64,000 nt of DNA from a virus: the IMG/VR virus record IMGVR_UViG_3300042563_002756; one strand, 5' to 3'. Positions 26,683-63,629 of the stretch are shown piece after piece. The notes beneath the pieces are model-generated. The model ran no database searches and was not told where the DNA came from. It saw nothing but the letters and a program-made list of their open reading frames with translations. How positions within the stretch are numbered: the first letter of the stretch is position 1; each line of letters begins with the position of its first letter. Position numbers and translations under genes: made by a program.

Positions 26683-26686
26683 ACAT

Positions 26687-26980
26687 TTATTTAACTTGTC
26701 CCCAACGAAGATAAAACTCGGATAACTTCTTTGCTTCAAGTTCCGCCATAATAATATACCTATATCCCGTCCACATTGAATCCATATGTCTATGCCATTC
26801 TGGTTTATCTACAGCGTGTTTGAATACAAACTGCCCTGCTTCACTACGTTCCCAATCAAACATAGGCCCAGCAGCATATATGTCAGGATCGTCGACATCG
26901 GCAAGATTAAACTTATGCACAACAACCTTGTGAATCTTTTTCACAACATCGCCTTCTACAGTATATCTTACTGAGCCCAT
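26687..26980 (-). CDS. hypothetical protein (97 aa)
   Basis: ORF. Confidence 0.4.
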   Translation of the reverse strand: MGSVRYTVEGDVVKKIHKVVVHKFNLADVDDPDIYAAGPMFDWERSEAGQFVFKHAVDKPEWHRHMDSMWTGYRYIIMAELEAKKLSEFYLRWGQVK

Positions 26981-28668: not shown

Positions 28669-29367
28669 TTATCTAGGTGCGAACTCTTGTTGTAATTTGA
28701 TGTTATCAAAAAATTCTTTCTTTGTAGCTGGATCATCTCTAAATGATCCTTTGAGCACAGTTGTTTGAGTTAATGAACTATGCGCCATGATGCCACGATT
28801 CTCACAGCACCCGTGTACTGCTTGAATGTAGACTGCTACGTTTTCTGAGGCAGTAGCTTTACTAATTTCTCGGGCAATGTCGTTGCAAAGTTCCTCCTGG
28901 AGAGTCCCGCGACGAGCACACCACTGAGCAATACGAGTGTACTTGCTAAGACCAATAAGTTTTTCTGCGGCGATGATGCCAATGTAAGCGACACCGCTAA
29001 CGGGCTGATGATGATGACTGCACATAGAGCGCAACTCACTACGTACCACCAGCATACCTTCGTATCGGTCTTCTGAATCGTTTGGAAATGCTGTTGCGTC
29101 TGGTGCTGCTTCATATCTTCCTGCCATTATTTCATTGTAGTACATCTTGGCCAGTCTACGTGCTGTGCCTTTGCTGTTGGGGTCGGTTTCACGATCGATC
29201 AACAGTGAATCTAACACTTTTTCAAAGGCCTCTGTTGCTTCGTCAATAAGTTCAGGCATAACATTGTTGTCGACATAGTCGCTGATGTTGTCGCCTGCCC
29301 AGAAGCGTTTGTTATCTTGTTTCATTCGATCGCGGATAACTTGCGATAGATTTTTACTTGTATCCAT
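28669..29367 (-). CDS. folE: GTP cyclohydrolase I (FolE)
   Basis: CSHHHQPVSGVAYIGIIAAEKLIGLSKYTRIAQWCARRGTLQEEL and VHGCCENRG align with E. coli FolE. Confidence 0.9.
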   Translation of the reverse strand: MDTSKNLSQVIRDRMKQDNKRFWAGDNISDYVDNNVMPELIDEATEAFEKVLDSLLIDRETDPNSKGTARRLAKMYYNEIMAGRYEAAPDATAFPNDSEDRYEGMLVVRSELRSMCSHHHQPVSGVAYIGIIAAEKLIGLSKYTRIAQWCARRGTLQEELCNDIAREISKATASENVAVYIQAVHGCCENRGIMAHSSLTQTTVLKGSFRDDPATKKEFFDNIKLQQEFAPR

Positions 29368-29416: not shown

Positions 29417-30250
29417 TTATTTAGGTTCAGTCAAGCGTAGTATTAGATTTTTCTTAACTGCGGAGTCCAAAACATTCATTTGCACACCTTGTTGTTCTGC
29501 GTATTTTAATAGAGCAGAAGTATCTTTTGGAAAGCACATACCACCAAATCCGAACTCGCCGTCGGGTCCTGGCACTTTCATATGACTATTGCCAATACGA
29601 CTATCCATTGTAATCATACTGGCAATCTTATTATAATCTTGCCCTGTTTTAGTAGCAAGGGCATATAACTCATTCATAAACGTAACCTTAGTCGATAGGA
29701 ATGAATTGATAGCATATTTGCTCAGTGCGGCTTCTTGGATAGTGCAATGCTGTACCTGTTCTAATGCAGTTTGCCCAAGCCGAATAATGCGTTCTGCATC
29801 ACGCTGATATGCACCTACGCTACCGCCGATAATGGCAAACTTGCCATTTATATAATCTCTCTCAGCATTGGCAGCAGTTAGAAACTCCGGAGCATGAACT
29901 AGATTAGGGTACTGATCATTTAGAGTTTGGTACACACTAGGTGGTGCAGTACACTTACTGATAATAACGCCTTTGTAATCTTTAAGTTTTTCTAAGACGT
30001 ACTCTAATATACTGGCATCGCATTTGCCATCGTCTCCCATTGGAGTAGGTACGCAGACAAACACGCCTTCGCAGTCGGCGAGATCTTTAAATGTGTGTGA
30101 ACCTTTTGTTGTATCTTTATCAACTAGTATAAGGTCAGTTGAGATTTCCATTGATCTAGCAATGGCACTGCCTACAAATCCTAGGCCCACAATGCCTATT
30201 TTTGGGTTATTTGAAAAAGGGAAATTCATAATATATGTATTTAATGTCAT
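29417..30250 (-). CDS. UDP-glucose/GDP-mannose dehydrogenase-family protein, short form (277 aa) lacking the C-terminal UDP-binding domain
   Basis: N-terminal Rossmann IGIVGLGFVGSA; catalytic GFGGMCFPKD Cys motif; ends ~50 aa after it. Confidence 0.65.
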   Translation of the reverse strand: MTLNTYIMNFPFSNNPKIGIVGLGFVGSAIARSMEISTDLILVDKDTTKGSHTFKDLADCEGVFVCVPTPMGDDGKCDASILEYVLEKLKDYKGVIISKCTAPPSVYQTLNDQYPNLVHAPEFLTAANAERDYINGKFAIIGGSVGAYQRDAERIIRLGQTALEQVQHCTIQEAALSKYAINSFLSTKVTFMNELYALATKTGQDYNKIASMITMDSRIGNSHMKVPGPDGEFGFGGMCFPKDTSALLKYAEQQGVQMNVLDSAVKKNLILRLTEPK

Positions 30251-30505: not shown

Positions 30506-31240
30506 TCAACGGTCTATCCAGTCTTTATTACGGTAAGGTTTACCAATGGCTGCTTGCGGTAGATATCGAACTACTTTCTTTTTTAATCGTTGGATAATGG
30601 GATGGTTGTGATCGTGTTGGAATGCTCTTAAATACATTCTCCAACTGTTGTGACGTCGTCTGATGCCTTTTTGGTTTTCACTTAGGTAGTCGACGATTTG
30701 GTCCACATCACCTTTAAATTTGTCTATTAATTCACAAGCGATATTGAATCCGTATGCATCTATTTCATCGGAACAGCCCAAATAACTCTGCTCCATTTGC
30801 ACTTCTGTTTTGTTTGCAGTGCTGGCATAATCTGGAATAATTTTAAATTTACGCCTACGATACTGCCTCATGTGTATCAATTCGTGTAGTAGGGTGTCTG
30901 CTACTGTATAACACATTCCCTTGTAGCGTTTTTTAGTTATGCATATATGCTCGTCAAACAACGAATAAACAAATATTATCTCTACAGCCTTCTTTTTATC
31001 TTGGTCCCACTCACTATAATATGTTCCGCCCACCCAAACTTGATTGGATTCTACTTTAAAATTAGTACTTCGTTTAAACCTAACTGGCGCTAATTTTTTT
31101 AAATGATTGGTAATTTTGCTGTGGAATTTTTCTATAGTAAGCTGTTGCCCGACTAATTCCGGATAAAGAGAGTACAGGAAACCTGCAATAGTTTCTCGAT
31201 CTAGCATAGACCAATTAAATCGTACTCTTGGTGTAGTCAT
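30506..31240 (-). CDS. HExxH zinc-metallopeptidase-like protein (SprT/ImmA-like fold suspected)
   Basis: LLHELIHM HExxH motif; 244 aa; last gene before AT-rich island. Confidence 0.4.
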   Translation of the reverse strand: MTTPRVRFNWSMLDRETIAGFLYSLYPELVGQQLTIEKFHSKITNHLKKLAPVRFKRSTNFKVESNQVWVGGTYYSEWDQDKKKAVEIIFVYSLFDEHICITKKRYKGMCYTVADTLLHELIHMRQYRRRKFKIIPDYASTANKTEVQMEQSYLGCSDEIDAYGFNIACELIDKFKGDVDQIVDYLSENQKGIRRRHNSWRMYLRAFQHDHNHPIIQRLKKKVVRYLPQAAIGKPYRNKDWIDR

Positions 31241-31398: not shown

Positions 31399-32310
31399 AT
31401 GCGATTTATTTTTTTTACAATTTTAATTTTTATCACTTCTATAGCTAATTCTACAGAACTAATTTGGATAAACTCACCTTATAGTGCAGGTCACAGCGGG
31501 CACAATTCTTTAGAAAAAGTACTTACAAAAGCTAACTCATCTCAACAAGACTATATTTTTAAAATTCAAATAAAACCTGGCGGCCAGGGAATAGTTGCAT
31601 TAAAAGAAACGGATATAAATCCGTCGTCTGCTCTAGCAATTGTACATGCTGCATTTGTTGACAATGTTGAGAAAAATTTAATTAAAAGAAATGATTATGT
31701 TGCTATCCACGGTATGGGAGATGCATGTTGGGCTGTTGTATCGTCAAACGGAATACAATCTGTTGGTGTTTCGAGTCTGCAACACACGTCCGAAATCGTA
31801 GTCGGAACAGTGGGAATTGGAAATGCTACTCATCTTACAGCATTAGAAATTGGTAGAAAATATAATATTCCAGTTAGATTAGTTCCATTTAAATCAAACT
31901 TCGATGCATTTGTCAATCTTGCAGGAAATAATGGAGTTAATTTTACTATAGAACGACTATCCACAGTTCAAAATTTTAAACAAAAGAATTCGAATATTAA
32001 AATTTTAGGACTTAGTTGTACGACAAGATCTCTCTACGAACCATCTATAAAAACTTTATCTGAACAGGGTATAAATGTTCCGTCAGTGTTTAATGTGATT
32101 GTTTCGAATAGACAAATGAGCGAAGCAAAACGAAAAACTATAGGAAGAATTTTAGACAAATCTACTAAAATAGTAGGCAATGATGAGATAATGAAACTTA
32201 GTGATATGAGAAGTCCAGTGTTTGACTCAATTAATGCTGAAGATTTTTTTAATGATAGGATTAATTCTATTTCAAATATTAGAAAACGCCATTCTCAGGC
32301 AATACAATAA
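31399..32310 (+). CDS. TctC/Bug-family periplasmic solute-binding protein-like, divergent (signal peptide)
   Basis: signal peptide; blocks NSPYSAGHSGHNSL, IKPGGQGIVA, VGTVGIGNATHLTALEI, RLVPFKSNFDAFVNL align to TctC conserved blocks. Confidence 0.55.
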   Translation: MRFIFFTILIFITSIANSTELIWINSPYSAGHSGHNSLEKVLTKANSSQQDYIFKIQIKPGGQGIVALKETDINPSSALAIVHAAFVDNVEKNLIKRNDYVAIHGMGDACWAVVSSNGIQSVGVSSLQHTSEIVVGTVGIGNATHLTALEIGRKYNIPVRLVPFKSNFDAFVNLAGNNGVNFTIERLSTVQNFKQKNSNIKILGLSCTTRSLYEPSIKTLSEQGINVPSVFNVIVSNRQMSEAKRKTIGRILDKSTKIVGNDEIMKLSDMRSPVFDSINAEDFFNDRINSISNIRKRHSQAIQ

Positions 32311-32317
32311 CCCTCTT

Positions 32318-32692
32318 TTAAAGTATGTCTGATATGTTCCAATTACCTTCGGGCAGAATAATTTCTTGTACAGTTCCGTCTTCGCTTGATATTTCAATAA
32401 TTTTTGCACCTGCGGTAATGCCTACTAAAGCATTATACTCGTCTCGTATGATCCAAAATGGATCCATTTCCGTATCGTGATCGTATTTGTGAAATTCCTC
32501 TAAATTTTCCCATTCGGCATAATAATTTAAAGTCAATTGGTCTTCACTCACATTATGCTCCCATTTAGTGATCTTTTCTTCTCCAATGTAATAATGCCAA
32601 CGAGTTAACCACTCATCGTCTGGCTGCATTACTTCATAATGCCAGAAAATTTCTGGCATTGGCCTATTAAATACTCTTTTAAAAATTATCAT
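32318..32692 (-). CDS. hypothetical protein (124 aa)
   Basis: ORF. Confidence 0.4.
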   Translation of the reverse strand: MIIFKRVFNRPMPEIFWHYEVMQPDDEWLTRWHYYIGEEKITKWEHNVSEDQLTLNYYAEWENLEEFHKYDHDTEMDPFWIIRDEYNALVGITAGAKIIEISSEDGTVQEIILPEGNWNISDIL

Positions 32693-32728
32693 AAATTCTC
32701 CTAGAAACGGTAGTAATCAATTTTATTT

Positions 32729-33709
32729 ATGCTAAATATGAGTGGTATAAAGGAGATTGATATGACCGCCAAACTAGTTAGATGGGTGCTTGCACACGAA
32801 CCTATTGAAATTTTTATTAGAGCTGCTGAAAAATTTGCTGAGATAGTAGAAGAAAGAGCTCCAGGAAGATTAAAAATTGAAGTATTAATGCTTAGTGAAT
32901 ATGCTGAAAAATATCAAAACGGTAAAAAAATAACCAAGCATGACTTACTTGATTTGATGGATAAAGATGAAATTGAAATGAGTCAAATGTATACCTACGT
33001 CTTGAGTAAGTTTAACAAAGACCTAAATGCATTGGACATGCCATTTTTATTCAACGATCACGATCATGCAGCTAGAGTATTTGAAGGACCTATTGGTGAT
33101 CAACTATTAAACGGTTATTCTAAAACTAACAGTAATATCAAAGGTTTGGCATTTACCTATAGTGGAGGATATAAGAATCTCCCGTTTAATAAAAAGATTA
33201 CTTCGTTAAGTGACTTAAAAGGTGCTAAGGTTAGAGTATCTAACAGTCCTGTATGCTTTGATACATTTAAAGCACTAGGGGCAGATCCTATTGTAATGGA
33301 TGTTGAAGAAATTACCCCTGCAATAAAAGATGGTAGAATTGATGCAGGTGAAAGCTCTTGGCCTAGAATTTACGGTTGCGATCAAAACACAGTTGCTAAA
33401 AGTATTTTTAACACAGGTCACAGTCTGTTATTAACTAATATTATTATCAACACTAAATTCTTTAATAGTTTAGATTACGAGATGCAGAATCTATTAAAGG
33501 AAGCAGCAGTAGAAGCTGGCCGATTCGAAAGAAAAATCAGTGTAGATGATGTTAGTCCTACAATTGATAAAGCACGAGCAGACGGAATCGAAGTAGTTGA
33601 TTTATCTCAGAAAGATCTAGAAACGTTTAAAGAGTTATCAAAAGAAATTTATTCAAAGTACGAAAATTTCTTCAGTAAAGGCTTGTTAGACAATATTAAG
33701 AAACACTAA
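32729..33709 (+). CDS. DctP-family TRAP-type solute-binding protein homolog lacking a signal peptide
   Basis: MPFLFNDHDHAARVFEGPIGDQLL, KGLAFTYSGGYKNL, LKGAKVRVSNSPVCFDTFKALGADPIVMDV match DctP blocks; no N-terminal signal sequence. Confidence 0.7.
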   Translation: MLNMSGIKEIDMTAKLVRWVLAHEPIEIFIRAAEKFAEIVEERAPGRLKIEVLMLSEYAEKYQNGKKITKHDLLDLMDKDEIEMSQMYTYVLSKFNKDLNALDMPFLFNDHDHAARVFEGPIGDQLLNGYSKTNSNIKGLAFTYSGGYKNLPFNKKITSLSDLKGAKVRVSNSPVCFDTFKALGADPIVMDVEEITPAIKDGRIDAGESSWPRIYGCDQNTVAKSIFNTGHSLLLTNIIINTKFFNSLDYEMQNLLKEAAVEAGRFERKISVDDVSPTIDKARADGIEVVDLSQKDLETFKELSKEIYSKYENFFSKGLLDNIKKH

Positions 33710-35013
33710 ACCCAATCTATTTTATAGTTCTTCAACCCGGCTTCAAAGTAACATTTGACTTCGGGTTGATCTATTTTTAAAACTCGATAATTTTCGTCCA
33801 GCGCCCATCTAGTATCTAGATCCTTCCAATTTTGTTTGTATACTCGAGCAATAATTACTGGCATAGATGGCATTTTTATTTTATTAAAAAAATAAAAATC
33901 GTTTTTATCAAATTTGTGCAGATAACATTTTGATGCCCACTTGTATGTACTTTGTGTAATGCCTTTAAGTTTTTCCCCGTTATTGTTATTATGCATACTC
34001 CATTGTTGATAATCTAAAGAACCGAACCAGCTTATTATGTCTTCAGTTAATATTGATTTAAAATTATCGTTAAGTCCGTAAACCATTGCAGGACGAACTG
34101 CACCCCAAACAAATCTAGGATTAAACATTGACCACCAGAAGAAATCATGCAAACTGTAAATCGGTACATTGACACTTTTTATATTGTTGTGTATTTTTTC
34201 ATAAAATAAATGTCCAAAATTTGCATCGTGAGAATTTTCAGAACTTATATTTTGTGGAACGTAGGGTATAGTTTTTAAAGAGTTTATGCCTCTCTTTAAT
34301 GCAGTATTAAAATAATATATTAAAATATCTCGATACTCAGAATAGTGCGTGTTTGAATCACTTACCTTGTTGTAAAGATGACTGAGATTTTTTCTACCGG
34401 CAGTCTGCATAGTTTCTTCAAGGTATTTCATTTGAGGATACAGTTTAACCCCCAATTCTGTTCCGTAAATGAAATCACCTAGATCAGCTGATATACAAAA
34501 ATGTTGTTTATTTTTTATAAAATCACTATAAAAATTTTTAGAAGAATCGATAATTTTAAATTTACCTTCGATGTGATTTGTATAGAAATATGGATTTTCT
34601 ATAATAGAATCAGCACTCATTGAAATTATTATTTTTTCTAAATATTCTTGTCCTAGATTTTTTATTAACGAGGCCATTACAACAGTACTGTCTATTCCTC
34701 CAGAATAAAATACAACACAGTTTTTACCTGTTTGATCGATAATATTTTTTATATCCATTGCCCTGCGGTCTGTTACTTCTTCAAATGATAGATTGAACTT
34801 TAAATCAAAAAGTGGAATCTCCCATCCGGACGGTACTACCGTATCCCAAGGATCACTCCATTCTCCGGCTCTTGACAAATATGCAGCGGGTGGATTTGCT
34901 CTTGCAATATTACAATAAAATCTTCCTCCTTCGTCGAGCTCGTCAAAAAATTTAGACAGAGTTGTTGCAACGCTGTAAGAATTAACCGAAGTGCTTTTAT
35001 ATAGTAGTTTCAT
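33706..35013 (-). CDS. PP-loop ATP-pyrophosphatase-family protein, paralog 1 (435 aa)
   Basis: SGGIDS PP-loop (VVFYSGGIDSTVV); paralogous to 35611, 40604, 42724. Confidence 0.65.
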   Translation of the reverse strand: MKLLYKSTSVNSYSVATTLSKFFDELDEGGRFYCNIARANPPAAYLSRAGEWSDPWDTVVPSGWEIPLFDLKFNLSFEEVTDRRAMDIKNIIDQTGKNCVVFYSGGIDSTVVMASLIKNLGQEYLEKIIISMSADSIIENPYFYTNHIEGKFKIIDSSKNFYSDFIKNKQHFCISADLGDFIYGTELGVKLYPQMKYLEETMQTAGRKNLSHLYNKVSDSNTHYSEYRDILIYYFNTALKRGINSLKTIPYVPQNISSENSHDANFGHLFYEKIHNNIKSVNVPIYSLHDFFWWSMFNPRFVWGAVRPAMVYGLNDNFKSILTEDIISWFGSLDYQQWSMHNNNNGEKLKGITQSTYKWASKCYLHKFDKNDFYFFNKIKMPSMPVIIARVYKQNWKDLDTRWALDENYRVLKIDQPEVKCYFEAGLKNYKIDWV

Positions 35014-35599
35014 ATTTTCTTAAATAGTTGTAGAAAGTTTGCCTATATGAATATAATGATGAACTCATATTGGTGTTTTCTTTGAAAATTTTTGATATTT
35101 TTTCTAAAGCCTCTTGCCTAGATGAAGAAAAATATAAAATATGATCTATATGCCAGAGAAAAGGTTTAGCCAGGCCGGTGTCGTCGGATAATGTTGATAG
35201 TGAAATATCATCGCTAACTAAGGATAATATATATTTTTGATCGCTAGAGTTTAAACTTGCATCAGTTAGTCTAGAAGACAACACAACATTATATGCAAAA
35301 TTGCAATAATTCTGATATTCTAAAAAAACATTCTGAGGAATATCCGGTGATCGTTCTCGAGTATCAAAAAGTTGATCTTCGATATGTTTTATTCGAGGAA
35401 TTGGTTTATCAAGCATTGCAATACTAGGATCTTTTATACCCCATGTGCTGCAATTATCATTATTGATACTGTTATTATTAAATTCAAATAAAGACAATAA
35501 AAATTTGGATGAAAGAATTTTACCAGTTTGTAAAGATATCCATCTGTCGTCTTTAACGAGTAGAAATCTTTCTAAGTTGTTTGAGTATATACCGATCAT
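34997..35599 (-). CDS. hypothetical protein (200 aa)
   Basis: ORF in island operon. Confidence 0.4.
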   Translation of the reverse strand: MIGIYSNNLERFLLVKDDRWISLQTGKILSSKFLLSLFEFNNNSINNDNCSTWGIKDPSIAMLDKPIPRIKHIEDQLFDTRERSPDIPQNVFLEYQNYCNFAYNVVLSSRLTDASLNSSDQKYILSLVSDDISLSTLSDDTGLAKPFLWHIDHILYFSSSRQEALEKISKIFKENTNMSSSLYSYRQTFYNYLRKYETTI

Positions 35600-35610
35600 C
35601 GCAATATTTA

Positions 35611-36495
35611 TTATAGTAAGTTTTTAGGTATTCTAAGTGTGGTTCCTATATAAGGGCTCCAATTAGCACTAGCTGTTTTTTGTAGGTGGTCCATGATTTT
35701 TGTTGCAACATCTGGATTTTTACCAAATACAAAGTTATCAGTTTTTTTCTTATAAACAGATTGATGATGATAATCGGGAAATATTATGCTCGACTTTGGT
35801 TCATAAAAAAATTTGAAATTAGTTCTTAATCTTGGATCTTTTAAAATATGATACCAAGTATTAAAATTTCTACTATAAAAATTACCTTCTCCTTGTTTAT
35901 TATAATGAGTTAAACATTGATTGTATAAAATTTCTGAGAGGTGCAAAGGTATGTAGATGTATTGATTATCAAAATCTTTAACCGAATTATTATAAATTGT
36001 AAGATATTTGTTGACATTATTTTTTTCTATATCCCCTTCTCCCATTATGATATAAAACTCTTTTGGTATAAATTTAGTTAGTATTGCACCTACCACATAT
36101 CCCGGAAACATAACAGGACAAATTTGAAATATTTCGTCGATAATATAATCAAAGATGTCATTAACTGTGATTTCGAAAATGTTAAGTTTTGTGTTGTGGT
36201 ACTGAGAAATTAATTTTGCTCCTTCGAGCATATTGTCATTTATATTTCGAATATGGAGGAAAAAATATTCGCAAGGAACTTTTAGTTTATATAAAGAATT
36301 AGCAATTAATTCACTATCTATACCCGAAAGGCACAATCCTATTTGATTGATGTTTTTTAATTTAGCATCATTATATAAGTCTGTAACTGATAAATCAATA
36401 GCCTCGAGGTAGTTGTTTGTAATAATTGGATCAAACTCGTTAACTGTATAAGTAAATTGACACGTTAATTTATTAAAATTAAAATTTCGTTTCAT
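35611..36495 (-). CDS. PP-loop-like paralog 2 with degenerate motif (294 aa)
   Basis: LCLSGIDSELI (SG-DS with one Gly lost); same fold family as neighbours. Confidence 0.5.
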   Translation of the reverse strand: MKRNFNFNKLTCQFTYTVNEFDPIITNNYLEAIDLSVTDLYNDAKLKNINQIGLCLSGIDSELIANSLYKLKVPCEYFFLHIRNINDNMLEGAKLISQYHNTKLNIFEITVNDIFDYIIDEIFQICPVMFPGYVVGAILTKFIPKEFYIIMGEGDIEKNNVNKYLTIYNNSVKDFDNQYIYIPLHLSEILYNQCLTHYNKQGEGNFYSRNFNTWYHILKDPRLRTNFKFFYEPKSSIIFPDYHHQSVYKKKTDNFVFGKNPDVATKIMDHLQKTASANWSPYIGTTLRIPKNLL

Positions 36496-36745
36496 AATAA
36501 TTAATAACTCTTTGTTTTTTTTCTTTTAATTCTGCACTAATTTCATTTTCTAATAAAATTTCCAATCCCCTTGAGCTCAACGTAAGATGGTATTCGATAA
36601 TATTTTTATTGTTAACAACTTTAAAAAACTCACTGGTTTCTTTTATTTCAATTATAATGTTGTCGTCTGAGACAGTTATATATTCATTTATTATATAACA
36701 GATAAGACCAGTCGCCTTATCTATAATTGCAAATTTTTTAATCAT
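36479..36745 (-). CDS. hypothetical small protein (88 aa)
   Basis: ORF. Confidence 0.35.
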   Translation of the reverse strand: MIKKFAIIDKATGLICYIINEYITVSDDNIIIEIKETSEFFKVVNNKNIIEYHLTLSSRGLEILLENEISAELKEKKQRVINYYETKF

Positions 36746-36756
36746 ATAAATACCTT

Positions 36757-38091
36757 ATGTATAATTTGTGTTCTGTAATTAACTATCAAAATTTAAATAA
36801 ACTTGCAATATCTAACGGAGCACAGTCATTAACATATAAAGAATTAAACAGTTTAGTTGGAAACTATGCCCACTATCTTAGTAGTATCGATCTAAAAAAT
36901 AAAAAAATATTTCTTGATATATCTAACCCTGTTGAATTTATTGCTGCTTATCTAGGAGTGTTAAAGTCAGGTAATATCAGTGTCCTTGTTAATAATAATT
37001 TATCAAAAGAAAAGAAAAAGCAAGTACTTTCTGATTTAGATATAGACTATAGGTTGTCTTCTAAAATATTTCAAGAGATTAACGATATACCAATTGTTGA
37101 AAGAAATGGTAGAGATCCATGCACTATTTTATTCACTTCTGGATCAATCAAATCTAAAGGAGTAATTGTACCCCATAATTTAAAAATTAATGTAGAAAGA
37201 ACTGTAAGTCCTCGAGGAACTAAAAGTTTAAAATTAATCAGTAGTCCCTTGTACCATTTAAACGGTTTATTTAATTGTTTATTAAGTTTAGCAAATGGCG
37301 GAACATTATTTACTGCTGAGAAATTTAGTATAAATTCATTTGAGACGTTTATAGATTCATATGCCATTAATAATATCGTGTGTGTTCCGACGGTAATTAA
37401 TATGTTAAACAATAATAAAATGTTTGATACTGTAAAATTAGTTCGTCTGACAAGTGCTCCGACAAGTTATTCCACTTTTCAAAAAGCTAAAAGAATATTT
37501 CCAAATGCGACTATTAGACTAGGCTACGGTCTTACTGAAGTTGGTTCTAGTTTATTTGGAAATCATCCGTTTTTACCTACTCCGGAAACAAGTGTTGGAT
37601 ATCCGTTTGCTGATATAGAATATAGATTGATCAATAATATACTTGAAATAAATAGCCCTTCTATGTTAATTGGATACACTGATTTAGATAAATCTAAAAT
37701 TACTAAAGATGGTTTTTTTGTTACTAATGATCTATTTGAAATAGATAAAGATGGATTTTATTATTTCATAGGCCGATTTGATGATATGTTTGCATGTGGC
37801 GGAGTAAAAATTTATCCGTCAGAAATAGAAAAAATTTTAGAACAATATGAAGGTGTTGAATCTGCAACGGTAATAAAGGTACAAGACAAAATAAAAGGAT
37901 TTAAACCGTATGCTTTTGTAAAATCTCAACATAATATTTCTCAATTAGATTTAGAAAATTATGTTAGAAGCAAGATGCCGTTTAGTCATTGCCCGAGAAA
38001 AATTTGGGTTGTAAAAGATTTTCCTTATAATAGTATAGGAAAAATTGACAAATTGTCTTTAACAAAAGAAGCTGAAAAATATATATGTTAA
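36757..38091 (+). CDS. ANL-superfamily adenylate-forming enzyme (acyl-CoA ligase / stand-alone adenylation domain)
   Basis: TSGSIKSKG (A3), YGLTE (A5), GGVKIYPSEIE, terminal IGKIDK lysine (A10). Confidence 0.75.
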   Translation: MYNLCSVINYQNLNKLAISNGAQSLTYKELNSLVGNYAHYLSSIDLKNKKIFLDISNPVEFIAAYLGVLKSGNISVLVNNNLSKEKKKQVLSDLDIDYRLSSKIFQEINDIPIVERNGRDPCTILFTSGSIKSKGVIVPHNLKINVERTVSPRGTKSLKLISSPLYHLNGLFNCLLSLANGGTLFTAEKFSINSFETFIDSYAINNIVCVPTVINMLNNNKMFDTVKLVRLTSAPTSYSTFQKAKRIFPNATIRLGYGLTEVGSSLFGNHPFLPTPETSVGYPFADIEYRLINNILEINSPSMLIGYTDLDKSKITKDGFFVTNDLFEIDKDGFYYFIGRFDDMFACGGVKIYPSEIEKILEQYEGVESATVIKVQDKIKGFKPYAFVKSQHNISQLDLENYVRSKMPFSHCPRKIWVVKDFPYNSIGKIDKLSLTKEAEKYIC

Positions 38092-38822
38092 AAAATAAAA
38101 TTGTTTTGATTGCTGGCGGAATGGGACAAATAGGATTAGAAGCAGCATCTAGATTATCAAATTTAGGTGCTATTGTTATTTGTTTAACTAGACAGGACCC
38201 TACTGAAGCAACTAATATTTTAAAAAATATTTCAATAAACTGCATAGCAGTTCAGTGCGATATTAAAAATACAACTATGATAAAAGATGTTGTACAGCAT
38301 ATTAGTAAAGAATATGGAAGAATAGATGTATTGATCAACAGTGCAGGTGTTACACATGATATTAAACTAGGAAATATTGAATCGATTACAGATGAAATAC
38401 TAGATAATATTATTGATACAAATCTAAAAGGATCTTTTAAATTAATAAGAGAATGTAAAGAACTTTTAGATAACTCAAGTAGTCCGCTAATTATTAATGT
38501 GTCATCGACATCAAGTTTACGGGCAAGTCGAAGTAACCCGATTTATGCTGCTTCGAAATCAGGTATTAACATACTGACCCAAACATTAGCATTACACCTT
38601 TCTCCGAGTATTAGGGTTGTTGGAATTGCGCCCGGCTACTTAGAAAAGGCTGTAGCAGGCGCTAATAAACCCAGTGAATATAATGACAAAATAGCACAGT
38701 CGTTACCCTTAAGACGAATTGGCACAGGAAAAGATGTAGTTGATGTGATAGAAAGTATTATTACCAAGATGACATGGATGACTGGAAATACTATTGTATT
38801 GGACGGAGGAATGACCATTTGA
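38085..38822 (+). CDS. short-chain dehydrogenase/reductase (SDR)
   Basis: IAGGMGQIG cofactor motif, NSAG, YAASK catalytic Tyr/Lys. Confidence 0.8.
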   Translation: MLKNKIVLIAGGMGQIGLEAASRLSNLGAIVICLTRQDPTEATNILKNISINCIAVQCDIKNTTMIKDVVQHISKEYGRIDVLINSAGVTHDIKLGNIESITDEILDNIIDTNLKGSFKLIRECKELLDNSSSPLIINVSSTSSLRASRSNPIYAASKSGINILTQTLALHLSPSIRVVGIAPGYLEKAVAGANKPSEYNDKIAQSLPLRRIGTGKDVVDVIESIITKMTWMTGNTIVLDGGMTI

Positions 38823-39691
38823 AAACTATAATAACATGTGCAATAACCGGAGCGTCGACTAGAAAAGATCAAACTCCTTATCTGCCAATTACTCCTGTAG
38901 AAATTGCCACCTCGGCGTTAGGGGCAGCATCAGCCGGTGCTGCTATTGTCCATTTACATGTAAGAGATCCTGAGACAGGCAATCCTAGCATGAGTTTTAA
39001 ATTATATGAAGAAGTTGTTTGTTTAATTAAAGAAAAAAATGACAAAGTTTTAATAAATTTAACAACGGGACCTGGTGCTCAATGGTTTCCTACTCCTGGT
39101 AATTTAGCGCAAGGAAGTCATCATAGCCTATTGCTCGGAGCCGCTGAGAGAGTGAATCATGTTGTAAAATTACGTCCCGATTTATGTAGTATAGACTTTA
39201 ATACAATGAATCAATCTAGCAACGGTGTTAGAATCAATCATAAACTAATTATAAAAGAAATGATTAAACTGATTCAAGATGCAGGCGTAAAACCTGAGCT
39301 AGAATTATTTGACAGTGGTGATTTAGTGTTGGCCAACGAATTTTATCAAGAAGGAATAATTGAAAAAAACCCATTTTGGCAATTTGCTATGGGGATCAAA
39401 TATGGTTGGGCTGCATCAACTAATACATTGATGTATGCACAACGAGAGTTGCCTTCGAGCGCAGTATGGAGTGCATTCGGAATAGGAAAAACTGAAATGC
39501 CTATATTGGCTCAAACTTCTATATTAGGTGGGCATGTAAGAGTGGGATTAGAAGATAATATCTATACAAAAAGAGGAAGATTAGCTGAATCAAATGCAGA
39601 GCTAGTTGAAATGGCTGTTAATATTATCGAGTTGCTAGGAGGAAATGTTGCAACTCCGGAAGACGCTAGATCTCTATTATCAATTATTTAA
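38819..39691 (+). CDS. BKACE/Kce-family beta-keto acid cleavage enzyme (DUF849); probable TTG start overlapping SDR stop (ORF open from 38774)
   Basis: AITGASTRKDQTPYLPITPVEIA...IVHLHVRD and GGHVRVGLEDNIY...LAESNAELV match Kce; TTGA overlap with GGAGGAA RBS. Confidence 0.8.
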   Translation: MKTIITCAITGASTRKDQTPYLPITPVEIATSALGAASAGAAIVHLHVRDPETGNPSMSFKLYEEVVCLIKEKNDKVLINLTTGPGAQWFPTPGNLAQGSHHSLLLGAAERVNHVVKLRPDLCSIDFNTMNQSSNGVRINHKLIIKEMIKLIQDAGVKPELELFDSGDLVLANEFYQEGIIEKNPFWQFAMGIKYGWAASTNTLMYAQRELPSSAVWSAFGIGKTEMPILAQTSILGGHVRVGLEDNIYTKRGRLAESNAELVEMAVNIIELLGGNVATPEDARSLLSII

Positions 39692-40595
39692 TCTTTCCTT
39701 CATCAATCAGATTGTTCTTTATGAGATATTCTAAAGTACTTTTATTAAATTCTTGAATAATTTGTGTATCGTTACCGTATTTGAGATAAGGCGTTATACC
39801 CAATCCTTTGATTCTTTTTTCAAAAGAAGCATCGAACTTATTTCTTATATCAAACAAAATTTTCTCTTTAATTTCAGCTGATAGACTTTTGCTAATTACA
39901 AGTCCCATTATATTTGATAGAGGAAATTTTTCTTTGAACTGTGTATCCCATAGAGGAACGTTTTCACTTATAGGGTTAGTGACTATTATTGCATTAAGCC
40001 TAGGATTAGTAAGGTGCTGTCTATGAACTGCATACTGGACCCACATACAGTTAATTTGATTACCTAGTAAGTCAAATAACGGTTTCCCTCCTCCAGCTGG
40101 ATATTGAACAATTATATGATTGTTTTTTGGAAGTTTATTTATAATCAATTGAGTAGTATAATGATCACCGGTTCCGACTCCAACTGAACCGAAGCTTAGA
40201 GATTTTTTATTATTCTGTAGATCTGTGAAATTCTTTATTCCTGTTTCGGCATTGCAAAACAATACCATAGGCATTACTCCGATCGATGCAATAATTTCTA
40301 GGTCTTCGGTTACAATTTTTTTAACATCGGGGTTCATTTTGTCAATTGACACAAAAGACATAATGGATGCAAATACCATAACGGCATTTTCTTTATGAAC
40401 GTGCCTAAGTGCAATCTGCGATGATCCGCCTGGCTTGTGTACCACAACGTAAGCAGGATCATTAAACGTTTCTTGAACTGACCTAGCAATTAAACTACCC
40501 GGACCGCCAGGTCCAAACGGAGCTACAATTTCTATTGTGGTTGCATAAAGGACTGAGTGAAACAGCATTATAGCAAGTAGTAATATTTTCTTCAT
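39684..40595 (-). CDS. TctC/Bug-family periplasmic solute-binding protein (signal peptide)
   Basis: IVAPFGPGGPGSLIARSV, VVVHKPGGSSQIA, FGSVGVGTGDHYTTQL, QYPAGGGKPLFDLLGNQINCMWVQ match TctC blocks. Confidence 0.75.
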   Translation of the reverse strand: MKKILLLAIMLFHSVLYATTIEIVAPFGPGGPGSLIARSVQETFNDPAYVVVHKPGGSSQIALRHVHKENAVMVFASIMSFVSIDKMNPDVKKIVTEDLEIIASIGVMPMVLFCNAETGIKNFTDLQNNKKSLSFGSVGVGTGDHYTTQLIINKLPKNNHIIVQYPAGGGKPLFDLLGNQINCMWVQYAVHRQHLTNPRLNAIIVTNPISENVPLWDTQFKEKFPLSNIMGLVISKSLSAEIKEKILFDIRNKFDASFEKRIKGLGITPYLKYGNDTQIIQEFNKSTLEYLIKNNLIDEGKIK

Positions 40596-40603: not shown

Positions 40604-41857
40604 TTAGTCTAATAGCCAGTCCCCACCAAAGGGAAATGAATGTGTTGGTTTAAAATTAACAGCAGCATTATTCTTGTCGAAAGCTAAATATTCTCCATCT
40701 ATCCCATTTAGGTAACTCTTTACATAATAATTCCATTTGTCCTGTATTGGTTTAGTTTCATGATGGTCCCAGAATACCCAATCTTGCGGTTTTCCAACTT
40801 TTACCTGAGTTAGTATTTCGATATCTTTTTTTATTTGAAATCGATTAGTATTCCAAAATGGATACAGAACTTTTTTACATATTTCGTCTTTTAAGTACTG
40901 CGGAGTTTGATTTAGCAGCATCAGTGTTTTTTCTTTTGATAGATTATTAAACTTTGAAAGAGGATACAATAGCATTCTATCTTCTTTATTAGTTTTATAA
41001 TGGAGATAAACTTGATATGCCATTTCCACAGCTAGTAATGGGTAGTCTGGTGTTATATAAAAATACTCAGTACCGGTACCGCCAAAAGTCAAGTTGTGTT
41101 GCAGAGGCCAATCAACAAATCTCGAAACTACTTTATTAGGTTCTAATTCAGAAATATACAAGTTGGGTTTATCTGCTCCTTCGATAATGCCAACATTTAC
41201 ACCTTTGTCGAATAGAGTTTTTTCAAATTTAGAAAAATGCTGCATTCTATAAAAACTTATAGGGCTTAAATAGTGATTTTGTTTTTGAAACTGTGTATCA
41301 TCAATTCTTTTTTCTGTTGTAATATTTTCAAGCCAGTCGTCGACATAGATTTTTATGTCTGGATAATTTTTTGAAATCCAATCTAAGTCGGGTTTTATTA
41401 CATAGTCCCATTCACTTAATTCGTTCTTAGGACTGAAATTTAAATTGTTAGGGGTGTATAGATTTTTTGATTTAGCAGAAACTGGCCAATTAACATATAT
41501 TGCATCTAATTTTATATTGTTCTTTAAAAAAGTCATCAATACATTGTGACTGTCTGAACCGCCTGAATATTTTAAAATTAAATATTCATACTTGTCTCTT
41601 AATTGCATTGCACGATCTTTATATAAAACATTCAACGGAATTTGTCCACACAACGAATAGTTGAAGTTTTTCCATATGTCTGAATAATATCGAAATGCAA
41701 TACCTACATTAGTGTTTAATTTTTTTAATCGAGTAGCTTCGAGTAATGCCTCTACTTTGTTTAAGTAATCTTTGTAAAAATTATGATTACTTTTGTTATA
41801 TACTCTATAGCATCCAAAAGAGTTAAGTGATAGATCAGTAATTGTAGTATTAGTCAT
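40604..41857 (-). CDS. PP-loop ATP-pyrophosphatase-family protein, paralog 3 (417 aa)
   Basis: KYSGGSDSHNVL PP-loop. Confidence 0.65.
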   Translation of the reverse strand: MTNTTITDLSLNSFGCYRVYNKSNHNFYKDYLNKVEALLEATRLKKLNTNVGIAFRYYSDIWKNFNYSLCGQIPLNVLYKDRAMQLRDKYEYLILKYSGGSDSHNVLMTFLKNNIKLDAIYVNWPVSAKSKNLYTPNNLNFSPKNELSEWDYVIKPDLDWISKNYPDIKIYVDDWLENITTEKRIDDTQFQKQNHYLSPISFYRMQHFSKFEKTLFDKGVNVGIIEGADKPNLYISELEPNKVVSRFVDWPLQHNLTFGGTGTEYFYITPDYPLLAVEMAYQVYLHYKTNKEDRMLLYPLSKFNNLSKEKTLMLLNQTPQYLKDEICKKVLYPFWNTNRFQIKKDIEILTQVKVGKPQDWVFWDHHETKPIQDKWNYYVKSYLNGIDGEYLAFDKNNAAVNFKPTHSFPFGGDWLLD

Positions 41858-42700
41858 TTAGTTTAAATTAGAGCCTAACCAGTTGCCATAATGCACACAA
41901 TGATCCTCTAGTCTATTAGAAGATCGTGTGAGCGGATAGTGCGGTCCTTTCTGAGATTCAATCGCAGCAACATCTTCTCGAAAAACAGGTTCTATATAGT
42001 GTTCAAATTTTTCTCTTTGTCCTACATTGGTAGTTTTATCGAAATAATATTGTGTGATCCAATTAAAACCAAATTCACTTTCTGTATTGTGCGGGGTAGT
42101 ATAATTTAATGCTACACACCCCGGGCTCCATTCTATAAACGTATATGGATAAACAAATAACCACCAGCCTGTTGAACAGGTTTGCAAAATCCATCCGTCA
42201 CCGTCATACATTTCAATATCATTTAAATTTGTAATTTCTGCTAATTCAGGATGTACTACATCTTCACCTTGTCTAATATGTAGTAGGTCTGCCTGTATTT
42301 CCATCATCCAAAGCCAACTACCCTTTTCACTTGTTCCGTGTCTAGAATGGCTATATTCTAGATTAGTCTCTGTTGCAAGATCGTTGACCCATTGGTGATC
42401 TGGTTCTAAAAAGTTTTTAAATATTAATCCACTTTTTCCAGTTTGTGCAGATCCACATGCAATTTTTCGATCGTTGTTTATAGGATCTCCGTCCTTATTC
42501 CATTCAAATCCATGAAACTTGCATACTATATTTTCAACTATTGAACCCGGCTCTGCTAGCGGATACATACGATGGGGGCAATGGCGTCGAAAAAGATTTA
42601 TTTTATCTTGATTTTTATTAAGGATATAATCTGGTACAACAAAATTGCCAGCATCGAGGGCAGATGTATGGGCTAAAATTTTTGGTGGATTGTTGAACAT
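41858..42700 (-). CDS. Rieske [2Fe-2S] domain oxygenase-like protein (280 aa)
   Basis: CPHR ... CKFHG (CxH-x16-CxxH) Rieske signature; His-containing C-terminal domain. Confidence 0.65.
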   Translation of the reverse strand: MFNNPPKILAHTSALDAGNFVVPDYILNKNQDKINLFRRHCPHRMYPLAEPGSIVENIVCKFHGFEWNKDGDPINNDRKIACGSAQTGKSGLIFKNFLEPDHQWVNDLATETNLEYSHSRHGTSEKGSWLWMMEIQADLLHIRQGEDVVHPELAEITNLNDIEMYDGDGWILQTCSTGWWLFVYPYTFIEWSPGCVALNYTTPHNTESEFGFNWITQYYFDKTTNVGQREKFEHYIEPVFREDVAAIESQKGPHYPLTRSSNRLEDHCVHYGNWLGSNLN

Positions 42701-42723
42701 GTATTTTCTTTTTCTACAAATAT

Positions 42724-43641
42724 TTATTGTAATAACAAACGGTTTAATTCTTCTTCAGAATATTTAATTGTAGTATCGTCGATGTCTCTCATATATTTGT
42801 TATAAAAATCATTAATAAATTGAGGTCTATGAGCTACAGGATTATCTAATCCCTCGTATCCTACTAGTTTAGGTTTATATTCCATTGTAGGCCAAATGTA
42901 TTTGTGTATAGCAACTCTACTGCTGATATTACTAATCTTGCCCAAGTGCTCATCATTTAGTAGTTGCCTAACTAATGGAAGTTCTTTATAAGACATAATT
43001 ATTTCAGGAGTATATTCGTACCAATCACCTATAATAGTTCTCCCTATATTTTTAGCGTAGGTAGATACAGAATATCCATCCTCGTGTAATTGAAATAGCC
43101 AACGAGACTTTTTACTGTAATCATTTTCTAATTCACGACGCCAGTAAGGTTCGCCGTCGCAGAAGATAGGTATGTTGTCTAAGTAGTCAATAAATTTAAG
43201 TCTAGGCAGTCTCCCTGCCATTGGTATCAGTGTACTATTAAACAATTCCAATGCTTCTTCTTTAAAGAATTTTTCTACGTTAAAATCGACGATATTGTAA
43301 GGTATGTTTAGTTCGTTGCATAATTTTACAGCATTGTTTACGTCGCGAATATTGTAGTTATTTTCTAATCTAAAGATAAAAGTATTATGTTTAATACCAG
43401 CACTCTTAAATGTTCTGACAACTATTTCACTGTCTGTACCTCCACTAAGGCATACGTCAAACGGTTCTTTATAAGAATCTCGCATGATACGTGCATTATT
43501 AATGAGTGCGTCTTTATAAGAAGTTAACGGAGTACTGATCTTGTTGTTAAAATTTATAGATATAATACTATGTTTATCTTTTTTAACACCGTATTCAATA
43601 CCGTCAAAATTATAACTCATCCAGTTATTAAATCTTTGCAT
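42724..43641 (-). CDS. PP-loop ATP-pyrophosphatase-family protein, paralog 4 (305 aa)
   Basis: CLSGGTDSEIVV PP-loop. Confidence 0.65.
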   Translation of the reverse strand: MQRFNNWMSYNFDGIEYGVKKDKHSIISINFNNKISTPLTSYKDALINNARIMRDSYKEPFDVCLSGGTDSEIVVRTFKSAGIKHNTFIFRLENNYNIRDVNNAVKLCNELNIPYNIVDFNVEKFFKEEALELFNSTLIPMAGRLPRLKFIDYLDNIPIFCDGEPYWRRELENDYSKKSRWLFQLHEDGYSVSTYAKNIGRTIIGDWYEYTPEIIMSYKELPLVRQLLNDEHLGKISNISSRVAIHKYIWPTMEYKPKLVGYEGLDNPVAHRPQFINDFYNKYMRDIDDTTIKYSEEELNRLLLQ

Positions 43642-43649
43642 TGAATATT

Positions 43650-45128
43650 CTAATCTGATTTGTGTTGTAAGTTAAAAGTCTTTGATAGTTCTAACATATC
43701 ATTTACGTATATTTCGCATTCTTTCTTAATCAACGAGGGAATATTATATTTAGATATTATTTCTTTTCTGGATAAATTCAATAATTCCTTATCTGGAATT
43801 CCGAATCGTCTTAGGTAATTATAAGTAAATCCACCGAATTTAAATTTTGAAAACTTGTTAGATTTTTCTGTTATATTGTGAGCAATATCAAAGCACTGTG
43901 AGTAACTTAACCCTGTATTTTTATTATACCATCCTTCATCTGTAATTTCATAACCATACTTATCATGATTAATATCAAATTCAGAGTGGAAGTTTTTATT
44001 AGTTTTACTAAGAGGAGAAATACCTAAGGGATTTACATACCAGCTATCTAAATAATTTTTGTCTGAGAATAAAAATTCTTCAAGTTCGGTAAAAGTATCA
44101 AGCGTATCATGTGGTAATCCTAATATAAATCCTGAATTTAATATTACGTCTTTGAATTCATTTTGTTTTAATTCTTTTATAAATTCTAATTGATCGTAGG
44201 GATTTAAACCTTTACCAATAGATTTAGCAGATTGGTGATTAATACTTTCAATACCAAACATTGCCGATGTGAGCCCGGACTCTTTTAAGTACGGGATAGA
44301 CTCTGGAAATCGCATTAGTAAGTCAATCCTCAAATAACTAGAAAAATGAATTTTAAATTTAAGTTTAGAAAATACGTTATCATGTAAATATTTTAACTTG
44401 TCTAAACTATCATTATAGGTATCATCACTAAAAGTATAATAAGTTATTCCAAAATTTTCATAATTATAATTTAACTCATCTAATAAAACATTTCCGTGTT
44501 TTATCCACTCACCTTTTGTTTTTCCGTTTAATGGGAATGCACAAAACTTACATTTAAAAATGCAACCTCTGCTTATCTCAATTGGCAATGCATCTAAATT
44601 ACTAATCAGATCATTTTTAGTGTACGTTATTTGACTTGATGAAAAATCTTTAAATTCACTACCTTGAATTAATGTAGTACGAAAAGAAATATTAGATGAT
44701 TTGTTTGTCAAACACCATTCAGTGAATTCTATAATTTCTTTGTCACTATAGCTCTTGAATATCTTTACTCCATATTGTTCTAATGGAAAATATCTAGACC
44801 CACCTGATATTATTTTAACTTTGGGATTTAAATTCTTGATAAATTGTATAAAGTTAACAAACAGTTCATCGTTTGTAGTAGATTTAAACGTTAATCCAAG
44901 AAGTTTATCAAAAAATGTAGTACTAAATCCTACCCACAATGTGCTTGATGATATTGAATTTTTTAAGACTTCTTTTAGCTGTTCTAGTTTATTCACATAT
45001 TCAAATGCACTTAGATCAATGCACACAGTAGAATAATTATTCTTTCTCAGTTCGGATGATATTCTAAATACGCCGCCGTGCTTTTGTAGTGGCATTGGGG
45101 TACTACCGTATAATAAAATACAATTCAT
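43650..45128 (-). CDS. radical SAM enzyme with N-terminal B12-binding-like domain, paralog 1
   Basis: CxxxCxxC (RGCIFKCKFCAF); N-terminal Rossmann-like region; 492 aa. Confidence 0.7.
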   Translation of the reverse strand: MNCILLYGSTPMPLQKHGGVFRISSELRKNNYSTVCIDLSAFEYVNKLEQLKEVLKNSISSSTLWVGFSTTFFDKLLGLTFKSTTNDELFVNFIQFIKNLNPKVKIISGGSRYFPLEQYGVKIFKSYSDKEIIEFTEWCLTNKSSNISFRTTLIQGSEFKDFSSSQITYTKNDLISNLDALPIEISRGCIFKCKFCAFPLNGKTKGEWIKHGNVLLDELNYNYENFGITYYTFSDDTYNDSLDKLKYLHDNVFSKLKFKIHFSSYLRIDLLMRFPESIPYLKESGLTSAMFGIESINHQSAKSIGKGLNPYDQLEFIKELKQNEFKDVILNSGFILGLPHDTLDTFTELEEFLFSDKNYLDSWYVNPLGISPLSKTNKNFHSEFDINHDKYGYEITDEGWYNKNTGLSYSQCFDIAHNITEKSNKFSKFKFGGFTYNYLRRFGIPDKELLNLSRKEIISKYNIPSLIKKECEIYVNDMLELSKTFNLQHKSD

Positions 45129-45898: not shown

Positions 45899-45928
45899 AA
45901 AGTTATGTAACTTATTATTTTAAGTTAT

Positions 45929-46522: not shown

Positions 46523-46639
46523 TAATTATTAAACTTACTTTTTATCGATTTATAAGATTCTGTAGTTGACCCGAATGATAGCAAATATCTGACTTTGCGC
46601 CGACCTTTATTTGATACCCTATGAAATTGTTTAGTGCTA

Positions 46640-63554: not shown

Positions 63555-63629
<75 letters not shown>

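Follow-up and report, generated by a model that had tools for sequence, protein, structure and literature searches.

A signal-less protein with the TRAP receptor fold, two TctC-type receptors and PP-loop enzymes in a putative organic acid module of a phage

Introduction

Why a phage should carry three solute-binding proteins and no permease to go with them is the question raised by a 64,000-nucleotide stretch of viral DNA (IMG/VR record IMGVR_UViG_3300042563_002756), which is called the window below. The receptors of TRAP (tripartite ATP-independent periplasmic) transporters and of the tripartite tricarboxylate transporters (TTT) are textbook extracytoplasmic proteins. In a preliminary description, made from the sequence alone, two TctC/Bug-like genes with signal peptides and one DctP-like gene without a signal peptide were noticed, and these three open reading frames (ORFs) were recovered at 31399-32310 (+), 39684-40595 (-) and 32729-33709 (+), respectively. 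The window represents only a part of the genome, and every negative result given for it holds within these 64 kb.

Based on the comparison with related loci, it was concluded that the conserved partner of the DctP-like gene is a novel PP-loop ATP-pyrophosphatase and not a permease. We proposed, with a probability of about 0.5, that all three proteins belong to one conserved module by which the phage captures and converts an organic acid and are not stray pieces of transporters. What appeared new was not the folds, which are known, but their cellular location, their partners and the virus-specific family in which they occur.

Results and Discussion

The DctP-like protein

The DctP-like ORF matched PF03480 at 190 bits (cut-off 23.4) and NF037995 TRAP_S1 at 139.5 bits (cut-off 50), and stayed under the cut-off of TIGR00787 dctP (147.7 against 175). 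The sequence match to solved TRAP receptors had an E value of ~1e-32. An AlphaFold model built on 22 family sequences reached a predicted local distance difference test (pLDDT) score of 93.8 and a predicted template modelling (pTM) score of 0.90, and displayed a two-lobe type II periplasmic-binding-protein fold with a long spanning helix. The model was aligned by Foldseek over its full length (~310 columns) with 4xfe, 4mx6, 4o94 and SiaP at TM-scores of 0.84-0.87. The binding-protein fold, which had been left to structure prediction, was thus recovered.

The absence of a signal peptide was confirmed for either possible start of the gene, because the first ATG follows an in-frame TAA codon (32714-32716) by 12 nt, the start of a divergent gene (32692) is 36 nt from this ATG, and the protein begins only 5-17 residues ahead of its first beta-strand. 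The second ATG at 32762 is preceded by an AAGGAG Shine-Dalgarno sequence and is likely the true start, which would give a protein of 315 aa. The DctP-like protein is not exportable by the Sec or the Tat pathway and is probably cytoplasmic.

Residue R158 aligned with R147 of SiaP, the carboxylate-clamp or selectivity-filter arginine; the position was occupied by arginine in 32 of 33 aligned sequences and was invariant in the family alignment A1. The carboxylate-binding arginine that was to be looked for in the DctP-like protein is therefore present. An arginine of the R147 type is the selectivity filter of TRAP receptors and clamps the carboxylate of the ligand (PMC4646407). The position of SiaP R127 was K, R or M in the DctP-like family, and that of N187 was S, C or T. 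The H. influenzae SiaP sequence used for the alignment places R127, R147 and N187 at the published positions. Judged from these alignments, the ligand pocket looks intact.

The invariant polar residues of the family were H12, H100, H102, E197, R202 and H220. Catalysts are known within the periplasmic-binding-protein fold, such as THI5 and MqnD, and the DctP-like protein could similarly have become an enzyme for one step of a pathway encoded in the island. The very high conservation, the number of invariant polar residues and the position of a cytoplasmic protein among enzymes are consistent with this explanation. On the other hand, the DHDH stretch and E197 (within a D-G-x-E motif) are also found in ordinary TRAP receptors, e.g., 4xfe, no catalytic motif was identified in the protein, and we know of no enzymes in the DctP family. 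A catalytic role was considered improbable.

Distribution of the signal-less family

More than 1,000 database proteins matched the DctP-like protein. The best 120 cluster representatives were 57-81% identical, nearly all of them 314-321 aa long, and every one had the N-terminus M-x(3-4)-[IV]-[RK]-W-V-L-A-H-E-P. The conservation of the family was on a par with that of the replication genes of the same contigs. When IMG/VR was scanned with the family motifs, 75 viral loci were obtained, and a scan of prokaryotes (one genome per species, 185,579 species) returned just two members. Both were located on contigs of metagenome-assembled genomes (MAGs) binned as candidate phyla radiation (CPR) bacteria, the remaining genes of which matched phage-only PHROG families; the two contigs were probably mis-binned. 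The pooled fetched loci contained 99 full-length viral DctP-like genes in 93 loci, and none of the 99 had a hydrophobic N-terminal extension. The genes occurred on 330-340 kb contigs resembling jumbo phages and on contigs of freshwater or marine origin that carry genes for PhoH, a clamp loader, lysozyme or a terminase. A tblastn search of phages yielded only matches of 20-30% identity, in records resembling bacterial contamination. These data showed a large and conserved clade of signal-less DctP proteins that is essentially confined to viral contigs. The picture of an orphan of one phage that lacks DctQM did not hold, since the protein belongs to a large virus-restricted family and the phages that do have DctQM carry a separate exported DctP.

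A wider DctP subclade has the WVLAHEP strand in common with the phage family. It includes signal-bearing cellular cousins of 37-43% identity, among them proteins on 1.1-1.5 Mb Bdellovibrionales contigs. The cousins (Bdellovibrionales and Elusimicrobiota MAGs) have the same N-terminal strand, FTYSGGY and clamp-arginine motifs as the phage proteins, but they possess signal peptides and are located in Dlt-like loci (two seen), not beside PP-loop genes. In both loci examined (L091, 6001-7023, and L092, 8001-9008; a Bdellovibrionales and another contig between them) DctQM genes were absent, and the neighbouring genes encoded MBOAT acyltransferases, an AMP-ligase, a carrier protein (72 aa, WDSL motif) and a DltD-like protein. 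The two loci suggest that a departure from transport, possibly of the whole WVLAHEP subclade, preceded the loss of the export signal in the phage lineage. Since the cousins appear unlinked to DctQM, some proteins annotated as 'TRAP substrate-binding protein' may be no component of transport. A specific kinship of the AMP-ligase of the window with the ligases of the cousin loci was also considered and rejected, as the identity was only ~23% and generic.

PP-loop enzymes beside the binding proteins

All ORFs within 4 kb of the DctP-like gene were clustered without prior assumptions in 79 loci. Two neighbour families dominated, both with the SGGxDS(T) loop: the P435 type, the most conserved neighbour of the DctP-like family, was found in 50 loci, and the P417 type, the homologues of which abut DctP-like or TctC-like genes, in 21. 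A PP-loop gene was present within 4 kb in 70/79 loci and abutted the DctP-like/TctC-like block in 61/79. The link persisted after dereplication, in 41 of 48 clusters at 90% identity and in 12 of 13 at 70% identity, and it was also observed in signal-less relatives of 39-45% identity. TctC-like genes accompanied 25/48 and 11/13 of these clusters, respectively. Homologues of another PP-loop protein of the window (305 aa) accompanied the DctP-like gene in L001, L047, L050, L055, L080 and L083.

The loop residues S104, G105, G106, D108, S109 and T110 were invariant in the P435 type, as were S98, G99, G100, D102 and S103 in the P417 type (alignment A3). The loop follows the first strand of a Rossmann-like domain and could be aligned with its counterparts in GMP synthetase, TilS, LarE, asparagine synthetase and QueC. 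The two types were related to each other through the PP-loop region only, and profiles of the PP-loop partners searched against the PDB gave matches confined to the PP-loop motif. In the P435-type protein of the window, only ~75 residues precede the PP-loop domain, and no glutaminase match was found for them. The P435 type was tentatively likened to the synthetase domain of asparagine synthetase B, with marginal support from Foldseek. It differed from the members of the AsnB family (AsnB, beta-lactam synthetase, carbapenam synthetase, TsnB9) by the lack of the N-terminal nucleophile (Ntn) glutaminase domain, by a different N-terminal region in its place, by an identity of 7-11% and by the absence of a match to Pfam Asn_synthase.

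The preliminary description had offered, as one option, an intracellular ligand carrier for the adjacent enzymes. An intracellular carrier is the better reading for the DctP-like protein, and enzymes are indeed conserved alongside it. The enzymes in question, however, are the PP-loop proteins, which had been left unmentioned, whereas the trio of AMP-ligase, short-chain dehydrogenase/reductase (SDR) and beta-keto acid cleavage enzyme (BKACE) accompanied the DctP-like gene in no more than four viral loci among those fetched (L022, L023, L053 and L058).

Two TctC/Bug-type receptors

The two TctC-like proteins of the window represent the T1 (31399-32310) and the T2 (39684-40595, TctC-like-2) subtypes. 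Against PF03401 TctC (cut-off 27) the T1 protein scored 24.7 bits, below the cut-off, and the T2 protein 34.7 bits, above it; the latter also matched BugD with E=1e-10 across 250 residues. A profile of the phage family that includes both proteins (A4) matched AdpC (7ndr, 1e-49), 8hka/terephthalate-binding protein (1e-45), BugD (3e-44) and Bug27 (1e-38) over positions 18-296 of 304. Judged from this full-length profile homology to TTT receptors, both proteins have the Bug/TctC fold.

The signal peptides described previously for both proteins were recovered as Sec-type N-termini, with a positive n-region and a hydrophobic h-region of at least 13 residues, as in 18/18 full-length phage homologues. 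These calls were heuristic and made by inspection of the n- and h-regions. The signals contained no twin-arginine motif that might allow hitch-hiking export. The start of the T2 gene was placed at Met10 by another gene caller. Met1 was favoured because only 8 nt separate it from the stop codon of the PP-loop gene upstream, which points to translational coupling, and because the homologues begin alike; the predicted export of this protein hinges on the Met1 start.

The T1 gene has a GAGGA Shine-Dalgarno sequence ahead of its ATG, and its product contains two invariant cysteines (C110 and C207) and a GDACWAV motif. In IMG/VR, 87 relatives of the T1-type tctC were found (alignment A6). This tighter alignment was used for the locus scan, as the mixed alignment A4 was too diverse. 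A locus scan with the single T1 sequence found nothing, and a tblastn search of phages with TctC-like-2 gave no match.

Bug receptors of bacteria are typically orphans that use a few TctAB permeases in common (PMC5812351), so the orphan state of the TctC-like genes, to which the preliminary description drew attention, is usual for this family. The phage proteins are like the known Bug/TctC receptors (BugD, Bug27, AdpC, terephthalate-binding protein) in fold, full-length profile homology and signal peptides, and the orphan organisation is common to them and most bacterial Bug proteins, with some phage orthologues adjoining tctB-tctA. They differ in being encoded by phages and in recurring beside PP-loop genes; the T1 protein alone is below the Pfam cut-off and has PYSxxHSG in place of the canonical P-F-x-x-G-G-x-x-D loop, in addition to the GDACWAV motif.

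Permease genes in the window and in related loci

The reported absence of TctA/TctB and DctQ/DctM genes was upheld by a scan of the ORFs of the window for transmembrane (TM) segments. The only multi-TM ORFs encoded a Bax-inhibitor-1 homologue and two proteins of the fatty acid desaturase family. The scan was crude but, as a positive control, readily detected DctQ/DctM and TctB/TctA as neighbours of the DctP and TctC genes of ordinary bacterial loci. The 6-TM ORF at 24505-25191 (-) was considered as a permease subunit and rejected; it encodes a 228-aa protein of the Bax-inhibitor-1/YccA family (PF01027, E=2e-53).

In related loci, permease genes did occur. The pair tctB-tctA was directly beside the T1-type tctC in 6/78 new viral loci (TctA E ~1e-140 to 1e-150) and, additionally, in L176. 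The gene order in L162 was u200-PPloop-TctC-DctPlike-x-x-PPloop-TctB-TctA. In L176 it was TctB-TctA-DctPlike, with the DctP-like start overlapping the tctA stop by 4 nt and a tctC gene alongside. DctQM linkage was absent from ~79 DctP-like loci save L064 and L066, both with a separate exported DctP. The contig of L064, which bears a large terminase and a head-closure gene, contained the string of three PP-loop genes, DctQ, DctM, a 362-aa DctP with a signal peptide and the signal-less DctP-like gene. As L064 has its own exported DctP beside DctQM, the signal-less protein was regarded as an extra component. The signal-less protein was operonic with TTT components (L162, L176) more often than with DctQM. 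Complete tripartite transporters were present on several viral contigs, of the TTT type in L108, L109, L125, L126, L162, L164 and L176 and of the TRAP type in L064 and L066, and several of the transporter-bearing contigs carry terminase, tail chaperone or endolysin genes.

TRAP systems have cytoplasmic accessory proteins, e.g., TeaD, and the DctP-like protein might bind TctA or DctM from the cytoplasmic side and accept the substrate, gate the import or regulate it, the PP-loop enzymes being independent and downstream. The overlap with tctA in L176 and the single gene strings with TctBA or DctQM in L162 and L064 speak for such a partnership. Most phages with the DctP-like gene, including that of the window, nevertheless have no permease gene nearby, when a PP-loop gene is nearly always present, and we know of no precedent for a DctP-type protein paired with a TTT-type permease. 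A role as a permease partner was therefore judged rather unlikely.

It was also considered that all three proteins serve transport, the DctP-like one reaching the periplasm by an unrecognised route or acting after lysis and feeding a host TRAP permease. The complete TRAP receptor fold with its selectivity arginine would suit this role, and cyanophage PstS demonstrates that phage receptors can use host permeases (PMC6359870). A signal peptide was, however, found in 0/99 viral genes and 0/120 close representatives, when the TctC-like proteins of the same genomes always have one; these TctC-like signals offer no twin-arginine motif for hitch-hiking; L064 has an exported DctP next to DctQM besides the signal-less protein; and even the signal-bearing cellular cousins have no DctQM neighbours. 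Export by an unrecognised route is unlikely, and transport by all three proteins was considered very unlikely. The earlier suggestion that the binding proteins plug into host transporters is thus reasonable for the TctC-like pair, given the T1 orthologues beside tctB-tctA and the orphan Bug receptors, and is opposed for the DctP-like protein by the missing export signals and by L064.

The DctP-like protein shares with the TRAP substrate-binding proteins of the DctP family (SiaP, DctP, Pput_1203 4xfe) the PF03480 family, the two-lobe fold, the clamp arginine and the E197 motif. Its family differs from them in the lack of a signal peptide or lipobox, the lack of linkage to DctQ/DctM, the restriction to viruses, the pairing with PP-loop enzymes and TTT components, and the S, C or T at the N187 equivalent. 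Neither DctP homologues without a signal peptide, nor their PP-loop partners, nor complete TTT or TRAP systems of phages were described in the literature searched, where 'dCTP' and primer strings confounded the keyword matches; the nearest mention was one tctA domain hit, listed as an auxiliary metabolic gene of unassigned role (PMC4164917).

A proposed module for capture and conversion of an organic acid

At even odds, the explanation that best combined these observations was a composite one, in which the exported receptors feed a TTT permease, host-encoded in the present case, and the cytoplasmic DctP-like protein captures a carboxylate for the PP-loop enzymes. Once the cell is infected, the TctC-like proteins would enter the periplasm and there pick up a carboxylate, which they would pass on to a TTT permease, in this phage the TctAB of the host. 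This step is in line with the common orphan state of Bug receptors (PMC5812351) and with cyanophage PstS, a receptor-only precedent that feeds a host permease (PMC6359870). The cytoplasmic DctP-like protein would bind the imported acid or its derivative via R158 and hand or present it to the PP-loop enzymes. These would adenylate the carboxyl or carbonyl oxygen with ATP and swap in a nitrogen nucleophile, resulting in an amide-type product. The AMP-ligase/SDR/BKACE unit, as a lineage-specific addition, might process a beta-hydroxy or beta-keto acid further. The proposed module is similar in concept to cyanophage PstS acting with host PstCAB, where the phage supplies only the periplasmic receptor and the host the membrane parts. 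The PstS system differs in fold family, transporter class (ABC) and substrate, and it has neither a cytoplasmic binding protein nor a PP-loop partner.

Several points weigh against the proposed module. The signal-peptide calls are heuristic. The DctP-like gene of the window and its PP-loop neighbour are convergent and, therefore, not co-transcribed. The host TctAB is postulated, and permease genes may lie outside the 64 kb. About 10-15% of the DctP-like clusters have no PP-loop gene within 4 kb, and 52/78 of the T1-type tctC loci have neither a PP-loop nor a DctP-like gene. Furthermore, clustering in hypervariable phage islands can mirror common insertion sites as well as common function.

The idea of phage sponges that bind small molecules is well established, and the DctP-like protein alone could be a cytoplasmic sponge or decoy that sinks a host metabolite or small-molecule signal with high affinity, e.g., to blunt a defence or starvation signal or to relieve feedback inhibition, with the neighbouring genes as unrelated cargo. 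The high conservation, virus restriction, cytoplasmic location and intact anion clamp of the protein speak for such a function. The adjacency of PP-loop genes is, however, near-universal across lineages that are otherwise little alike, and the gene is repeatedly found in one operon with exported receptors and a TTT or TRAP permease; both features argue for metabolite flux and not for sequestration. The protein also showed no similarity to known sponges, and sequestration was considered rather unlikely. Along with the permease partner and the enzyme of binding-protein fold, the sponge was nevertheless one of the main rivals of the proposed module.

A bolder form of the proposed module is two-sided viral import, with a TctC-type receptor outside, a DctP-type acceptor inside and a TTT or TRAP permease between them, the carboxylate being handed to amide-forming PP-loop enzymes. 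This form was put forward only tentatively. If true, such an import-and-convert metabolon would be the first non-exported, non-transport role of the TRAP receptor fold. A large, strongly conserved and virus-only DctP clade that remains cytoplasmic would be a new use of this fold, and its pairing with ATP-using PP-loop enzymes and, in some of the phages, with an entire TTT or TRAP permease of viral origin would be another. The module would, if true, further constitute a new class of auxiliary metabolic modules in abundant aquatic myoviruses and jumbo phages, going past the single-receptor precedent of PstS. The module would give several 'hypothetical' phage families a testable context, carboxylate in and amide-type product out, and would point to a dissolved organic acid that is worth importing for phages during infection.

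The low-GC island

The module is flanked by genes of a T4-type tail fibre, baseplate proteins, rIIA and rIIB, and the source was therefore assigned to a large myovirus. The rIIA of the window was at most 28-37% identical to those of cultured phages, and megablast of the 28-46 kb region against GenBank phages gave zero nucleotide matches. The module lies inside a low-GC island (~30-50 kb) with a GC content of 0.28-0.36, compared to 0.38-0.49 elsewhere. The gene order of the island was identical across two independent sequencing runs, which excluded an assembly artefact, and its synteny was seen in several phage lineages.

A location in a low-GC island would fit functionless cargo, i.e., a fragment of a bacterial catabolic cluster acquired horizontally without its permease genes. 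Combinations of a substrate-binding protein, ligase, SDR and BKACE do resemble bacterial acid-catabolism loci. Contrary to this, the DctP-like family is restricted to viruses and is as conserved among hundreds of clusters (57-81% identity) as the replication genes of the same contigs, and the island is syntenic in several phage lineages and recurrent in independent samples. The conservation and virus restriction of the family, together with the dereplicated PP-loop link, largely refuted functionless cargo, which was left as the most unlikely of the explanations.

Scans of the window for sigma-70 promoters, terminators and T4 late promoters gave counts at or under chance. A perfect T4-type late-promoter motif, TATAAATA, was found at 36745-36752 (+), ending 5 nt before the AMP-ligase start codon. 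The T4 late-promoter motif occurred 3 times in the window, compared to 8 expected by chance, and its position ahead of the AMP-ligase may be a coincidence.

Other genes in and around the island

The features of the module and its neighbours are listed in Table 1.

Table 1. Coordinates of the binding proteins, PP-loop proteins and neighbouring genes in the window
Feature	Coordinates	Strand	Basis and remarks
TctC/Bug-type receptor, T1 subtype, 303 aa, predicted to be exported	31399..32310	+	signal peptide MRFIFFTILIFITSIANS, then TE; family profile A4
Signal-less DctP-family protein (TRAP receptor fold)	32729..33709	+	PF03480, upstream stop, model
P435-type PP-loop ATP-pyrophosphatase	33706..35013	-	invariant SGGxDST; convergent with the DctP-like gene, 4-nt overlap
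200-aa protein (u200), directly upstream of the P435-type gene	34997..35599	-	beside P435 in L001, L030, L047, L050, L053, L055, L058, L059, L080, L162
294-aa protein, possible PP-loop paralogue	35611..36495	-	degenerate PP-loop-like motif LSGIDSE read from the translation; no family match
Enzyme of the AMP-forming acid-CoA ligase family; opens a unit of three plus-strand genes	36757..38091	+	PF00501, PF13193
SDR	38085..38822	+	PF13561, PF00106, E ~1e-42
BKACE (DUF849 family)	38774..39691	+	PF05853, E=1e-89
TctC/Bug-type receptor (TctC-like-2), T2 subtype, 303 aa, predicted to be exported	39684..40595	-	N-terminus MKKILLLAIMLFHSVLYA...; PF03401, profile A4
P417-type PP-loop protein, immediately upstream of TctC-like-2 (8 nt)	40604..41857	-	invariant SGGxDS
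Rieske [2Fe-2S] protein; in some lineages conserved together with the module	41858..42700	-	PF00355; L001, L055
305-aa PP-loop protein, fourth paralogue	42724..43641	-	LSGGTDSE; weak Pfam QueC, tRNA_Me_trans and NAD_synthase matches at the PP-loop

With its listed start, the BKACE ORF shares 49 nt (38774-38822) with the SDR gene; its Pfam match begins at residue 17, and the true start may be downstream. The remainder of the island (41858-49554) encodes the Rieske protein, the two membrane proteins of the fatty acid desaturase family and two radical-SAM proteins of ~490 aa, one of which has a weak match to a B12-binding domain. In L001, L055 and L080, the DctP-like gene is likewise accompanied by genes for a Rieske protein, a desaturase and a PP-loop paralogue.

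At the edge of the island, a GTP cyclohydrolase I gene adjoins that of a 277-aa UDP-glucose/GDP-mannose dehydrogenase-like protein (28669-29367 (-) and 29417-30250 (-), respectively). The ORF at 30506-31240 (-) encodes a 244-aa protein with the metalloprotease-like motif HELIHM (HExxH), homologues of which flank the module in L001, L030 and L055. The ORF at 25906-26739 (-) encodes a homologue of D-alanyl-D-alanine carboxypeptidase (Peptidase_S11) that has a hydrophobic segment at its N-terminus.

Two cytidylyltransferase-like paralogues (CTP_transf_like, NMNAT-type) are located at 4138-4602 (-) and 16421-16903 (-). One of them is 75% identical to a gene on the 340-kb viral-looking contig L005, and similar genes were found near the module in L064 and L174. 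A tRNA-Gly (GCC) gene is located at 63556-63629 (-).

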